Origin: Phormidesmis sp.
GTDB lineage: Bacteria; Cyanobacteriota; Cyanobacteriia; Leptolyngbyales; Leptolyngbyaceae
Length of the DNA stretch: 64,000 nucleotides
NCBI GenBank assembly: GCA_965248535.1
Contig: CBDFJR010000005.1
Span: 1,920,001-1,984,000 of the forward strand
Reading direction: 5' to 3'
The notes beneath the pieces are model-generated. The model worked only from the letters and a program-made list of their open reading frames with translations, did not search any database and was not told the DNA's origin. This document shows, piece after piece, positions 18,996 through 23,979 of this stretch (positions are counted from its first letter, which is position 1; each line of letters begins with the position of its first letter). The translations under genes and the position numbers were made by a program.

Positions 18996-19035
18996 ATGAG
19001 GTGACTGGCAGATTATTCTCCCAGAATTTAGTCAT

Positions 19036-19071
19036 CCTTTACAGTTCGTAATCACTCTAGTGAGCGATCGC
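19036..19071 (+). repeat. 36-bp direct repeat, left copy (ends in HIP1)
   Basis: CCTTTACAGTTCGTAATCACTCTAGTGAGCGATCGC, identical to 22894-22929. Confidence 0.95.
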
Positions 19072-19275: not shown

Positions 19276-19320
19276 TGGGGTATGCCATTTTGAACTCTTT
19301 GAGACATGGATTGAATGGCG

Positions 19321-20100
19321 ATCTAACGGCTAAAGTGAGCGGCGGCAAGAGGACTAGAACGAAGCGCAAAGGCTATGTATCGTCCGCTCCACTATGTGTC
19401 CGCCCAGCATGGGCGTGAACTAATGGGGTGAAAGTCCCCTGTCGGAGAACCAACGTCCAAAGGAACCCGAAAGTTCCGAGTGACGACAACGACTAGCTTA
19501 AGGCAAGGGCGTTTCCGCGAGGAAGGGTCTGAAGGAAGCTGGAGGCAAACCTGCGAACTGACGGACAGAAACGTCATAGAAGGCTAAGATTCCCGTGGCG
19601 AGTGAGCACAACATCACAAAGCCTTTTGGTTCAGGGAACATAGTAAATGACGCGGTTGTGCAGGGACATTCACGGTCTTATCTGGGGAGATCTGCTCAAA
19701 GGGCGGTTTGGGATTTTATGGGAGTCGGACTGAGGGCGATTTGGAAACGAATCGACAACCCACCGAACCCTACGGAAACCTAAGCAGCGCGTCTAGCGGC
19801 AACGCTAGAGGTAATTGAGCAGAAGTCAGCAGAAGCCATAGTAGCCAAATGCTCATCGTCATGGGTGAGACAGGGTGAAGGGCTGAACGTCAGAGAGCAG
19901 GGAGGAGCCGTAAAGCTCGACGGGGCGATGAACCCGGATGGGGGAGCTAACTTGTCGGCGCTTAATTGCGTCACCAGCCCTGGACATCAATTCTTTGGAG
20001 TTGAAGGGTCTAAACCTCTTTGAGGAAGCGCCCCGTGCGGAGCCGCACGCGGGGTGCTGTGGGAGCGGGGGGAGAAAATCCCCTTGCTACCCGATTAGAC
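19321..20100 (-). other. attC recombination site (about 82 nt) split by the group II intron
   Basis: With the intron removed, the minus strand reads GTCTAAC-ATA-GTGGAGCGGACG...CCGCCGCTCAC-TTTAGCC-GTTAGAT: RYYYAAC/GTTRRRY cores with paired arms and two extrahelical bases. Confidence 0.8.
19398..20095 (+). mobile_element. ORF-less group IIC intron (IIC-attC type)
   Basis: 5' end GTCCGCCCAGCATGGGCG; IIC DI hallmarks (GGGTGAAAGTCCC, TAGCTTAAGGCAAGG, TCTGAAGGAAGC, TCTTATCTGGGGAGATCTG); AGAAGTCAGCAGAAGCCATAGTAG; short DV GAAGCGCCCCGTGCGGAGCCGCACGCGGGGTGCTG with CGC triad; DVI ending CTACCCGAT; no RT ORF. Confidence 0.92.
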
Positions 20101-20149
20101 GCCGTCAGTTACGCAGAATTCCCTGAGTACATGCACGGTATTGGTGCTA

Positions 20150-20818
20150 TTAATCAATAATTACCCTAAAGGTCAAATTGATTCTCGGTTCTACCTTTCT
20201 AGATGTTTTTGGAATTTGATGCTGCCAGAAATGCTGAGTCTCACCAGCCATCAGAAGAAAACTACCATGTGTTAGCTCAACTTCCGCCTTCAGATCTTGG
20301 TCTTGCCTATGCCGAAACATAAATCTTCTTGCTCCTCCGAAACTGACAGAGCCAATTACAGGATTTTCACCTAATTCTGGCTCTGCATCTGTGTGCCAAG
20401 AGATACCATCATTTCCATGACGATAGAGATTCAGCAAAACGCTGTTGAACTCAACCTCTGAAACCTCTTCAATACGCTGCTTCACTTGCAGCAATGTTGG
20501 TGTCCAAGGTTCAGGATCGAGGTGAATACCTGAGAAGGTGTACGATTTATCCTGATCACCATACCAAGCAGTCTTTCGCGGCAAATTGATCTCTTTGCCA
20601 TAAAGCTTCATCTTGTCTTGCCGCCAGTTAATCTCATTCAGCAAGATCTGGAAAATTTCGTTGCTTCTTTGCGAGTCGAAAAAGTTTCGGTAGAAAATAA
20701 CCTTTGCGTCTGGCATAGGTAGGACTTCTCTGACTAATTCATCCTCGGCACTTGTGACCGACTCAAAACCGGAGAACAAGTCCCCTTGAGAAACATTTAC
20801 GGCAGACTTCCTTCTCAT
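20150..20818 (-). CDS. AlkB-family (ALKBH2/3-like) 2-oxoglutarate/Fe(II) dioxygenase
   Basis: LPRKTAWYGD, FNSVLLNLYR, WHTD, SVSFG, HQIPK, RINLTFR. Confidence 0.93.
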   Translation of the reverse strand: MRRKSAVNVSQGDLFSGFESVTSAEDELVREVLPMPDAKVIFYRNFFDSQRSNEIFQILLNEINWRQDKMKLYGKEINLPRKTAWYGDQDKSYTFSGIHLDPEPWTPTLLQVKQRIEEVSEVEFNSVLLNLYRHGNDGISWHTDAEPELGENPVIGSVSFGGARRFMFRHRQDQDLKAEVELTHGSFLLMAGETQHFWQHQIPKTSRKVEPRINLTFRVIID

Positions 20819-20830
20819 AAAGACTTTTCC

Positions 20831-21637
20831 TCAGCTTTGAATCAGGTTCACAGTGAATTGCCTCTCGCATACACCTATTCTACGCTCTTCATACCTTCCG
20901 GTTTTGAAGTAGAACACTTTTTTATAAATCGGCTCCTCAGAAACCACTGAGTTGTAAATTCGACCGGACTGCGAGAACAAGTCATAGAAGTTACTTAATC
21001 TATATCTACGATCGTTATCTGGACTTGTGCAGATAAATCGATTTAAGCCTCGAAAGGAACCAATTATCAACTCGTGTAATTCGTCTAAACTAAACGCTTC
21101 TACATCAATAATGTTTGAGAAAAGGTGAACCTTGATGCTATCCATATCAGAAATCAAATCGCTAGGTTGCAAGTCATCTATGTACTTACTAATTCTACGT
21201 ATGGTAGGAGTAGCATAGGCTTCAGATTGAAGCATTTGACAAGCGAGGTTGTAACCGCGCTCCAACGCTGTAAGCGAAGGCTCTACAAGCGTAATCGAGA
21301 CTACTTCGGGCTTGAGCTTACTCTCGATGAAGTAGTCAATCAAAACACAGGTCGCCAATGCTTGACCACATCCCCAGTCAATGATCTCCAATTTTTTGCC
21401 GTCAGTATAGTGAAAATTAGTTGAGGCAAAGGCTGCATAAAGTTTGTGAAAATGATGCCCACCGTAAAACGCTACATACTGGTCGCATTTTGCCTCGCTA
21501 TCCAACACTGCCGTACCATTAGCTAAAGCACTGAGAACATTTTGAACATTTTGTATATTCTTGCACTTTTCTATGCAGGGCTTGTAGATGCCATCGATAA
21601 ATCTCATGATCCCTTCTTCTGAGTTCGAGATGTTCAT
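20831..21637 (-). CDS. hypothetical class I SAM-dependent methyltransferase-like protein
   Basis: IIDWGCGQA motif I, LVEPS acidic motif II, HLFSNIIDV. Confidence 0.65.
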   Translation of the reverse strand: MNISNSEEGIMRFIDGIYKPCIEKCKNIQNVQNVLSALANGTAVLDSEAKCDQYVAFYGGHHFHKLYAAFASTNFHYTDGKKLEIIDWGCGQALATCVLIDYFIESKLKPEVVSITLVEPSLTALERGYNLACQMLQSEAYATPTIRRISKYIDDLQPSDLISDMDSIKVHLFSNIIDVEAFSLDELHELIIGSFRGLNRFICTSPDNDRRYRLSNFYDLFSQSGRIYNSVVSEEPIYKKVFYFKTGRYEERRIGVCERQFTVNLIQS

Positions 21638-21783
21638 GTAGAAGGCTCAAAAAATGTAAGACTTCTATCGGCTAGACTGCCCAAGCTACCTTCTAGATTA
21701 AACAATTACTTCAGTGATGGTTCTCCAGATTCTCAAATGTCAGGATTGCACAAGGCTGAAGTGGCAATCTCACCAACAACTCA

Positions 21784-21942
21784 GGCGTATAACTACTATT
21801 TCTGCCGTTTGAACTCCTATCAAACAGGATAAATGCCTCTCTCAGAGAAATTATGCCGTATGGAAACCGGATAACTCCCATTTTTTTAGGAATCATCCTG
21901 AATTCTCACAGGATAACTCTCCACTTTCGGGTAATTATACGG
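21784..21942 (-). other. attI-like site with phased inverted boxes (42-bp period)
   Basis: Minus-strand core GTTATACGCC complements the cassette's attC R'' (GGCGTCTAAC) at 9/10 nt; three C(A/C)GGATAA-N18-inverted-box units at 21825, 21867 and 21909. Confidence 0.6.
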
Positions 21943-22258
21943 AATGGCGCTCAGGTTTTTCGATTCTAAGGGAGCCGCGAGTAAATTGTCTCGTTCCGAT
22001 GAATCAGTCATGGCGCTGAGTCGATCGAGTCCCTGCCGTTGCTCGACTGGAACATAAATTAGGGAGAGTTTACGATCGCCCCCCCTCTTCCACAAAACCC
22101 GATCGCTTCCCTCCCCCACAAAAATCACCATTCCAAAAAACAAAAAACTCTAGTACAATACACCGCAGTGATGGAGTTATGCCCCGAAGCCTGATCTACC
22201 AAATCAGACTCCGAGGACTTCCATCCCTAGTTACCGACTAGTAACTTAGGAGGCGTTC

Positions 22259-22378
22259 ATGATTGTACACCGACAGCTTTGCTATGGGATCTTGAAAGGC
22301 TGGAATCAAGATCCTGCATACAGATTTCCCCCCAACCCAATGTCTGAGAGATCCGTGTTTTTGTCCTCTTTGAATTAA
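22259..22378 (+). CDS. putative 39-aa leader peptide
   Basis: AGGAGG 5 nt before ATG; stop lies in the loop of the hairpin covering the next RBS. Confidence 0.35.
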   Translation: MIVHRQLCYGILKGWNQDPAYRFPPNPMSERSVFLSSLN

Positions 22379-22394
22379 TCGAGAGGACAAAACT

Positions 22395-22766
22395 ATGGGA
22401 GTTAGGACGATCGTGCCTAGCTCGATTTCGTTCACCGTTGAGTTACGTTGCTCAATCGAAAAGCGTTATCGAGTCAGTGTTATTTTGGATTTGCAAGAGC
22501 GTTATATTTTCATTCCCTCTGGTGTTATCTCAGACATTAGTGATGTCATTGAAGAGTTTGTGTCTCAGTTAAGTGAGATCGCGTCTAATCAACTGGCATT
22601 CTTGAAATGGGACGGTACGAGTGATTTAACGACGGAGTATCAGATTGTTCGAGTGTTGCCGGGATATCAAGTTGAGCGATCGTTAGCAAAGTTCAACATT
22701 GTCATCGGCAGTGGTTCACTGATTCAAGTGGAGGAGTTGCACGACAAAATCATCATTCAACTCTAG
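22395..22766 (+). CDS. hypothetical protein
   Basis: 123-aa ORF with GAGAGGA RBS; no recognisable motif. Confidence 0.5.
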   Translation: MGVRTIVPSSISFTVELRCSIEKRYRVSVILDLQERYIFIPSGVISDISDVIEEFVSQLSEIASNQLAFLKWDGTSDLTTEYQIVRVLPGYQVERSLAKFNIVIGSGSLIQVEELHDKIIIQL

Positions 22767-22893
22767 ATAAAGGGAACGATCGCGAAATTACCTTTTTGAA
22801 GGCTGACCGAAATTAAGCGATCGTTCCTTAATCATCTGAAGGGCTAACATTTTAGATTGAATAGGATGAATCCTCGATCTCATTCCTAATCAC

Positions 22894-22929
22894 CCTTTAC
22901 AGTTCGTAATCACTCTAGTGAGCGATCGC
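22894..22929 (+). repeat. 36-bp direct repeat, right copy (ends in HIP1)
   Basis: Identical to 19036-19071. Confidence 0.95.
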
Positions 22930-22989
22930 ACTCCTGAAAGTTTTAGACTTTATAAGATATCGCCAACATTAGCCAGCTATATCAGCCCT

Positions 22990-23979
22990 ATGTTTCCAAC
23001 TCACCGCCCTCGCCGCCTGCGTGCTCATCCTCAACTGCGCCGGATGGTGCGTGAGACTGTGTTGACTACCAGTGACTTGATCTATCCCTTGTTTGCGGTT
23101 CCGGGTGAGGCGATCGCCAAAGAAGTTCGCTCAATGCCGGGGGTGTTTCAACTCTCGATCGACAAAATCGTTGAAGAAGCTAAAGAAGTCTACGATTTGG
23201 GCATTCCGTCAATTATTTTGTTTGGCATTCCGGCGGATAAAGACACGGATGCAACGGGTGCCTGGCACGATTGCGGCATGATTCAAAAAGCGGCAACGGC
23301 CGTGAAGGAAGCGGTTCCCGATCTGATCGTGATTGCAGACACTTGCCTGTGTGAATATACGCCCCACGGTCACTGTGGTTATCTCGAAGTCGGCGACTTA
23401 TCCGGGCGAGTGCTCAACGACCCAACGTTAGAACTGCTCAAAAAAACGGCGGTTTCTCAAGCCAAAGCAGGTGCTGATATCATTGCGCCTTCTGGCATGA
23501 TGGATGGCTTTGTGCAAGCGGTGCGACAGGGGCTAGACGAAGCAGGATTTCACGATACGCCGATCATGTCTTATGCGGCAAAATATGCGTCCGCCTATTA
23601 TGGGCCATTTCGAGATGCAGCCGAATCGGCTCCTCAGTTTGGCGATCGCCGCACCTACCAAATGGACCCCGGCAACGCTCGTGAAGCGATTAAAGAAATC
23701 GAACTCGATATTGCCGAAGGCGCAGATATGCTGATGGTCAAGCCAGCGCTGTCTTATATGGATGTGATTTATCGCGTCAAGGAAGCGACGAATTTGCCTG
23801 TCGCGGCCTATAACGTGTCGGGCGAATATGCGATGGTAAAGGCCGCTGCCCTCAACGGCTGGATCGATGAAGAGCGCATCGTTCTGGAAACGCTGACCAG
23901 CTTTAAACGGGCAGGTGCAGATTTAATTCTTACCTACCATGCTAAAGATGCGGCTCGTTGGTTGGCTGCTCAGGCTTAA
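22990..23979 (+). CDS. hemB: porphobilinogen synthase (ALA dehydratase)
   Basis: [43 protein letters not shown]. Confidence 0.97.

Follow-up and report, generated by a model that had tools for sequence, protein, structure and literature searches.

A probable attI recombination region with phased inverted boxes in a degenerate chromosomal integron of Phormidesmis sp.

Gene content and organization of the locus

The window, the whole 64,000-nucleotide stretch of Phormidesmis sp. DNA that was analysed, contains an inserted block with an attC site split by a group II intron, a two-gene cassette, a module of inverted boxes, the remnant of an integron integrase gene (intI) and a gene for a 123-aa protein, ORF123 (Table 1). 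In four other genomes (G007, G006, G003 and G001) rpmA lies directly beside hemB, and in G002 the block's hemB-side end adjoins hemB as it does in the window, at a contig start. Most of the integron remnant lies between two copies of a 43-bp direct repeat (19029-19071 and 22887-22929, 95% identical), of which four congeners have a single copy. At the left end of the block no recognisable att site was found at 19071/19072 or 18997/18998, which counts against an integron reading. The right end reads ...GGGCTAAC at 22841-22848, and most other copies of the unit described below end in GTTAGGGAG...CTCCCTAAC. An attC would have the geometry 5'-RYYYAAC...GTTRRRY-3', with L boxes and extrahelical bases. 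The 3' inverted repeat, which in the other copies reads 5'-GTTAGGGAG...CTCCCTAAC-3' with GTT/AAC at the open stem end, was tried as an attC site and rejected; the attC model did not match it.

Table 1. Coordinates of features of the integron remnant in the window.
Feature	Position	Strand	Remarks
attC of cassette 1	19314..19408	+	R''-type GGCGATCTAAC at 19317-19327, L'', L', GT at 19396-19397
ORF-less group II intron	19398..20095	+	Rfam RF02001, RF01998, RF00029; at GT/T of attC; boundary ±2 nt
Cassette 1 body	20096..21792	-	two genes; attC R'' starts at 20103
attI core / R box (predicted)	21784..21793	-	minus strand reads GTTATACGCC; homology of 22 copies begins right of TAAC
L box TTCTGCCG (predicted)	21800..21807	+	with R box forms head-to-head simple site, 6-7 bp spacer
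Three 42-bp units	21825..21942	.	each a head-to-head (G/A)TTATNCNG box pair with 18 bp between; candidate accessory integrase sites
intI upstream region and leader	21943..21998	+	aligns with the bases immediately 5' of the intI ATG in L022/L023
intI remnant	21999..22074	+	ATG and ~25 codons, ends at deletion junction; aligns with codons 1-~28 of L023/L022 IntI
ORF123 upstream part	22075..22394	+	promoter-like TTCCAA-N17-TACAAT (22131-22159), ~230-nt leader
ORF123	22395..22766	+	123-aa protein
3' inverted repeat and block right end	22767..22848	+	repeat 22770-22783 / 22817-22829

Read on the minus strand, the order is that of a classical integron: intI, boxes, G/TTA and variable DNA. The module lies 5' of intI, between intI and the array, and the cassette genes read in the other direction. 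The array runs leftwards on the minus strand, with one two-gene cassette followed by the intron-bearing attC. The locus is not a complete integron: an intact intI is absent beside the array, and about 25 codons are left, with an in-frame TGA at 22017-22019 (codon 7). The initial annotation had found no integrase gene adjacent and allowed for its loss; the intact gene is indeed lost, but the adjoining remnant at 21999-22074 had been overlooked.

Cassette 1 encodes a 268-aa ORF (20831-21637) and an AlkB-like 2OG-Fe(II) oxygenase (20150-20818), 12 bp apart on the minus strand. The oxygenase matches PF13532 at 1e-37, and the 268-aa protein has only a sub-threshold methyltransferase match (E 0.016). 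A two-gene cassette is unusual and counts against the attI and integron reading. As a separate observation, the two gene products could work as a pair in modifying and repairing nucleic acids. The cassette starts with TTATACGCC, which is complementary at 9/10 positions to its attC R'', GGCGTCTAAC; in the cassette at C5:43604, the first bases are complementary to the cassette's own attC R'' at all ten positions. The 9/10 complementarity between core and R'' had been reported in the initial annotation and holds for the core GTTATACGCC, but GGCGTCTAAC is absent from the raw window. On the minus strand, 20103-20094 is GGCGTCTAAT; the decamer appears only after removal of the group II intron (~19398-20095).

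This intron, of about 700 nt and antisense to the cassette genes, splits the cassette 1 attC, of which the last bases, TAGAC, lie at 20096-20100. At gathering thresholds, Rfam matched only a group II intron in the window. At least eight copies are present in the genome, and all eight full-length copies split an attC at TTGT/TA, in sites of the form GCGGCATAAC-6 nt-cAGCGGCGGCAGA-loop-CGTCCGCTCC-5 nt-TTGT-intron-TATGC.

A covariance model (R1), built from eleven uninterrupted, well-aligned attC sites, has a single match in the window, at 19314-19408 (42.2 bits, E 6e-9), which aligns with seven other intron-split attC sites and has the R''-L''...L'-R' structure. The attC fold has a 19-pair stem with two single-base bulges and eight pairs with compensatory changes. 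Genome-wide, the model finds 45 distinct sites. By a tally of coordinates, in which a long copy, a short copy, a solo module or an intI gene counts as a platform, 33 of them lie beside platforms, on the TAAC side and on the same strand. On the TAAC side of all eight long copies, of the solo module and of both intact intI genes there are attC sites with a common orientation; in each of the eight long copies such a site is 0.3-5.6 kb from the TAAC junction. Platforms of the genome other than that of the window carry 2-5 attC. The remaining 12 orphan sites lie away from platforms, for example those at C2:1280542 and C2:1282021, 1.5 kb apart, and may represent small clusters without an integrase, or cassettes at secondary sites.

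Copies of the module, the integrase genes and ORF123

The box module is a discrete element of about 190 bp (21794 to ~21985). Twenty-two copies were aligned, nine from the same genome and the rest from eight other genomes. All 22 diverge directly after TAAC (G/TTA on the minus strand), at 21793, where TAAC adjoins TAYTATTTCTGCCG; a weak G-Y-M consensus precedes TAAC. Beyond this GTT-type core lie cassette sequences that differ between copies. We infer that the crossover G/TT falls between 21793 and 21792 and that everything to its left is cassette DNA. Among 81 genomes of the family, the module (query 21786-21965) was found in 11, belonging to 4 of 27 genera, with 69-81% identity outside the genome under study.

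A search of the genome itself with 21640-22394 gave 21 matches, and BLAST of 21400-23300 delimited a unit from ~21790 to 22766 that is present as eight long copies, nine short copies and one solo copy. The short copies begin near 22044-22148, and the solo copy comprises the first ~150 bp. All nine left ends read ...TAAC followed by TACTATTTCTGCCG... and are unrelated further left. The initial annotation had recognised the site as attI-like and overlooked its membership in a multi-copy unit. One cassette, ending in ...GGGCTGGCGGCATAAC at the junction, comes first at two platforms with the window's type of module (module A) and also at a different attI type, upstream of the intI gene at C2:1131581-1132534, joined at the same TAAC. 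Contigs of two sequencing runs diverge at 21789, and a contig of an independent run has the ...GGGCTGGCGGCATAAC flank adjoining module A. For an empty-site comparison at a second platform, C5:43604, the flank proved poorly conserved in congeners, with only partial matches of 70-78%.

In G004 (locus L022) and in G084 (locus L023, another genus), the module lies about 56 nt upstream of an intact 319-aa intI ORF on the same strand. The encoded proteins have Phage_integrase and SAM_4 domains and score 438-440 bits on the NCBIfam integron integrase model TIGR02249, for which the cut-off is 265. The initial annotation had tied its reading to divergence of copies exactly at the core and to a neighbourhood of attC cassettes or a tyrosine recombinase. 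All of these were borne out: by the breakpoint at 21793 in 22 of 22 copies, by the attC at 19314-19408 together with the 33 of 45 genomic attC beside platforms, and by the intact integron integrase in G004 and G084 and the intI remnant in the window.

In the window, a deletion joins the intI remnant to the ORF123 unit, and the same junction is found in all eight long copies and in G003 and G004. The genome retains two intact intI genes, both on contig C2 (161475-162425 and 1131581-1132534), whose proteins are only 56-58% identical to the IntI found beside module A elsewhere. At these two loci (L049 8560-8990, minus strand, and L050 9075-9470), the outer ~170 bp following ...GCATAAC/GATTGAGTTGAACCGC are shared and the inner repeat arrays differ, with four repeats of ~40 bp around ATACGGAAAGTTTCCGTAT at one and a CCGCCTAAGATCCC-type repeat at the other.

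ORF123 is intact in 16 of its 17 copies, has a protein identity well above its DNA identity, and is under purifying selection; its ~230-nt leader is more conserved than the gene itself. It has 407 homologues, all named ones being from Phormidesmis, and it directly follows intI in six loci of five Phormidesmis genomes. ORF123 is a conserved gene tied to intI and of no known family: no Pfam or NCBIfam family and no usable ESM-atlas match were found, and only 15 representatives were recovered as relatives at E ≤ 0.001. The predicted structure has a pLDDT of 88. Foldseek on the PDB returned no match at E ≤ 0.001 (best 0.14), a wide structural scan (VIA) reached a best Z of 4.4, and the model contains no recognisable DNA-binding fold. 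A distant match, P0131, looks like a low-complexity artefact. In a second distant protein, P0128 (2642 aa, Pfam uninformative), nine stretches match the C-terminal half of ORF123 (E 1e-10, 27% identity), and the ORF123 fold may recur there as a repeat in a giant protein.

Inverted boxes and competing readings of the array

The four motif pairs and the exact 42-bp period given in the initial annotation were confirmed. They comprise a tight pair, GCGTATAA-N7-TTCTGCCG, at 21785-21807, and three units starting at 21825, 21867 and 21909: CAGGATAA-N18-TTATGCCG (21825-21858), CCGGATAA-N18-TCATCCTG (21867-21900) and CAGGATAA-N18-TTATACGG (21909-21942). By sequence, the tight pair has the two inversely oriented integrase boxes of a simple site, GCGTATAAC-N6-TTCTGCCG, and flanks at the core fit GTTRRRY loosely (for example GTTAGAC, GTTATGC and GTTAGGC). 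Each of the eight boxes, taken on the strand that reads 5'-TTAT, fits (G/A/T)TTAT(C/G/A)C(C/T/G)G. The (G/A)TTATNCNG box motif is the R-box of the genome's own attC sites, and the boxes resemble the core as well. Box B2 (ATTATGCCG) is one base off the commonest attC R box, GTTATGCCG, and the L box, the best conserved of all (mean identity 0.94), is an imperfect inverted copy of it.

A degenerate form of the pattern matches the three units and nothing else in the 64 kb, compared with 0 in 100 shuffles; this count proves little alone, because the units themselves served as the template for the pattern. The bare hexamer GGATAA shows no enrichment in the window (22 found, 23.4 expected). Independent support for the boxes comes from their conservation across genomes, from their being better conserved than the spacers, and from enrichment and phasing upstream of other intI genes. 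Other genomes share the box region at 69-81% identity, and mean column identity over 18 non-redundant rows is 0.84-0.94 in the boxes versus 0.56-0.81 in the spacers.

TIGR02249 scores above its cut-off in 46 of the 81 family genomes and in none of 14 control genomes. The 500 nt upstream of 32 family intI genes hold 71 boxes in 14.5 kb (4.9/kb), against a background of 0.25/kb over the whole genome and 0.50/kb elsewhere in these loci. Across this cyanobacterial family, boxes upstream of intI are thus about 10-20-fold enriched and phased at 40-42 bp. Of the 32 regions, 13 have boxes spaced 39-43 bp apart on the same strand, versus 5 of 5000 random windows, and one locus has five boxes at a 41-bp period. 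In a second set, drawn from named records, 17 cyanobacterial regions have 5.0 boxes/kb (four regions phased) and 55 regions from other phyla have 0.87/kb (two phased). Boxes upstream of intI occur in at least 21 genera; a phased pair of the strict motif is absent from 19 of the 32 family regions and from 13 of the 17 wider cyanobacterial regions. The two phased non-cyanobacterial regions are from Anaerolineales (L137 and L138), with TTATNCNG-type boxes 41 bp apart, and the phased architecture may extend beyond cyanobacteria.

We conclude that 21784 to ~21985 is very probably the attI recombination region of a degenerate chromosomal integron, with the cassette insertion point on one side and the integrase gene on the other. 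The claim of a cassette-receiving site made in the initial annotation is supported by the breakpoint at 21793, the intI neighbourhood, the association with attC and the likeness of the boxes. The reading of the 42-bp units is less firm. While the core at 21785-21807 would still be an attI simple site, the units could be an operator for a transcription factor, either a host regulator or ORF123, that controls divergent intI and cassette promoters. The units do occupy the stretch from the crossover to the intI start codon, in which both promoters must fall, and the boxes contain TATAAT-like hexamers. A promoter-like minus-strand site (TCGAAA-18-TATAAT, 21963-21934) overlaps box D2, but the number of promoter-like matches in the region does not exceed chance (three found, 2.2 expected). 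The other intI genes of the genome carry different arrays at the same place, as exchangeable operators would, and ORF123 keeps its place beside intI in the six loci. An operator is nevertheless rather unlikely, given that the boxes share their motif with the attC R box and the core itself, and that boxes accompany intI in at least 21 genera whereas ORF123 is confined to one genus. A LexA-type box is absent from 21600-22400, and the predicted ORF123 model, lacking a recognisable DNA-binding fold, does not suggest a DNA-binding regulator.

Every unit is also an inverted repeat, and the module lies upstream of intI on the same strand, so that the boxes might pair into nucleic-acid stems: the intI mRNA could form hairpins in its 5' leader, or the attI could fold as a single strand and recombine in the manner of an attC. 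Such stems are highly improbable. RNAalifold predicted 0 pairs on the 22 sequences, and no compensatory pairing was found among the boxes. Under both box-pairing schemes pairing is high and compensatory change is missing; in the within-unit scheme no helix between boxes has changed on both of its sides, and variation in a box usually loses the pair (columns 82/110: 4 paired, 18 unpaired). Covariation of two hand-made structures did not exceed that of shuffles (36/500 and 84/500), whereas attC sites of the same genome covary clearly, and a conserved RNA or single-stranded DNA structure of the module was rejected on these results. Also in favour of a fold is a small 4-bp stem in the spacer of unit B, which changes on both sides in 4/4 pairs. 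With no structural covariation, and with pairs lost on variation, the boxes behave as sequence-specific sites in duplex DNA. Least probable of all is a transposon-like element with no relation to integrons, such as one of IS200/IS605 type inserting 3' of TAAC; its left end would be the present region, with the boxes as transposase sites or subterminal hairpins. A multi-copy unit with sharp ends, both beside TAAC, and a 3' hairpin would fit such an element, but the module lies upstream of intact intI genes, an intI remnant sits inside the unit, and attC arrays are always on the TAAC side. Terminal inverted repeats are absent, and GTTA...TAAC hairpins are not enriched (16, versus 3-43 for 11 control tetranucleotides). 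An IS200/IS605-like or REP-like unit was likewise rejected, GTTAGGGAG...CTCCCTAAC hairpins being found only at the unit's own ends and intI having been found.

Comparison with known systems and a proposed mechanism

To our knowledge, attI sites have been described for few integron classes only, and a literature search, with subscription journals outside its coverage, returned no title or abstract on a cyanobacterial attI or a phased multi-unit attI. For the chromosomal integrons of cyanobacteria, the region described here offers an attI that is defined by sequence and has its crossover point mapped. Head-to-head (G/A)TTATNCNG boxes at a 40-42-bp period could serve as an annotation signature for attI in this family. 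According to PMC8946536, attI1 carries the sites L, R, DR1 and DR2 and is recognised in its double-stranded form. The window attI resembles it in lying between intI and the first cassette, in a GTT-type core at the crossover, in an imperfect inverted L/R pair, and in extra integrase-type boxes on the intI side with a sequence recognised, as the box variation suggests, in duplex DNA (PMC8946536). Unlike attI1, which has two extra boxes, it has six candidates, in three head-to-head pairs that have 18 bp between their members and recur every 42 bp exactly; the array spans ~150 bp versus ~65 bp, and its sequence shows no similarity to attI1.

What the window contains is a classical integron from which intI has been deleted and not a new kind of platform. 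The phylum is already known for integrons: PMC4889954 describes Cyanobacteria with integrons and with cassette clusters that lack an integrase. The initial annotation's claim of an unrecognised platform is therefore not upheld. The new points are the phased multi-unit attI, the eight dispersed copies with one intI deletion, and the 123-aa gene downstream of intI. PMC4889954 lists intI loss as one origin of CALIN arrays. Like CALIN arrays and integrons with an intI pseudogene, the window has an array without a nearby intact intI in a genome that also holds complete integrons (PMC4889954). Unlike a CALIN, for which at least two attC without a nearby intI are needed, the window has a single attC (searched at E up to 10), keeps its attI and an intI remnant, and represents one deletion derivative found in eight copies with different cassettes. 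This derivative, integrase-less at eight sites with different cassettes, bears both on the reach of integrase action in trans and on the origin of integrase-less cassette clusters.

The attI-ΔintI-ORF123 unit, which may have been moved by integrase, resembles the ΔattI-type cassettes of mobile integrons in that an attI travels in a unit bounded by integrase crossover points (PMC12901181). The ΔattI-type cassettes described there consist of short pieces of attI on the flanks of resistance genes in clinical class 1 and class 2 integrons (PMC12901181), whereas in Phormidesmis a whole attI, an intI remnant and a conserved gene are dispersed around a cyanobacterial chromosome. The window intron, in turn, is like the group IIC-attC introns (e.g., S.ma.I2), which PMC3001079 places in attC sites and antisense to cassette genes, and it likewise lies beside the GTT of the R' box (PMC3001079). 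The likeness is one of insertion site and orientation; in contrast to the S.ma.I2 type, the introns of this genome are ORF-less, ~700 nt long and present in at least eight copies.

In the mechanism that we propose, an integron integrase encoded by one of the two intact C2 intI genes would act in trans on the window attI. It would bind the simple site, made up of the R box GTTATACGC (minus strand) and the L box TTCTGCCG, cut G/TT between 21793 and 21792, and insert folded attC cassettes. The six (G/A)TTATNCNG boxes would bind further integrase molecules, comparable to DR1 and DR2 of attI1. Their three head-to-head pairs, at a period of 42 bp or four helical turns, would lie on one face of the helix, and the resulting higher-order complex may favour attI x attC synapsis, control the divergent promoters, or both. 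Likeness of motif is what points to IntI as the protein that binds the boxes, and on balance we lean towards regarding the six as accessory integrase-binding sites that build such a complex.

The case for action in trans comes from the attI-ΔintI-ORF123 unit, of which the eight copies in this genome share one deletion junction and are each joined to different cassette DNA at TAAC. All eight long copies descend from one deletion event. One deletion with different cassettes at the core means that cassettes were inserted after the loss of intI, or that the unit itself moved, and each of these needs integrase in trans. The genome's own IntI proteins may act in trans on a module-A attI; counting against this, they are only 56-58% identical to the IntI found beside module A elsewhere, and their own upstream arrays differ.

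More speculatively, and with considerable doubt on our part, the attI-ΔintI-ORF123 unit may be a 'satellite' integron platform on which integrases from other loci of the genome act. It may itself move as a large attI-type cassette through its GTTA/TAAC ends, and ORF123 may act together with the phased box array as an accessory or regulatory factor specific to integrons. A circular form of the unit would have the predicted junction ...CTCCCTAAC/TACTATTTC... If this is true, the satellite unit seeds new cassette-capture sites, at least eight of the module-A type and at least two of a second type. Two short copies, C5:797958 and C2:1670292, represent a second, independent intI deletion, from the attI type of the genome's own intact intI genes. 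The short ORF123 copy at C5:1266469 adjoins what by appearance is a tRNA-gene-like sequence (...GTTAGCTCAGTTGGTAGAGCG...GGTTCGATTCCCC...).
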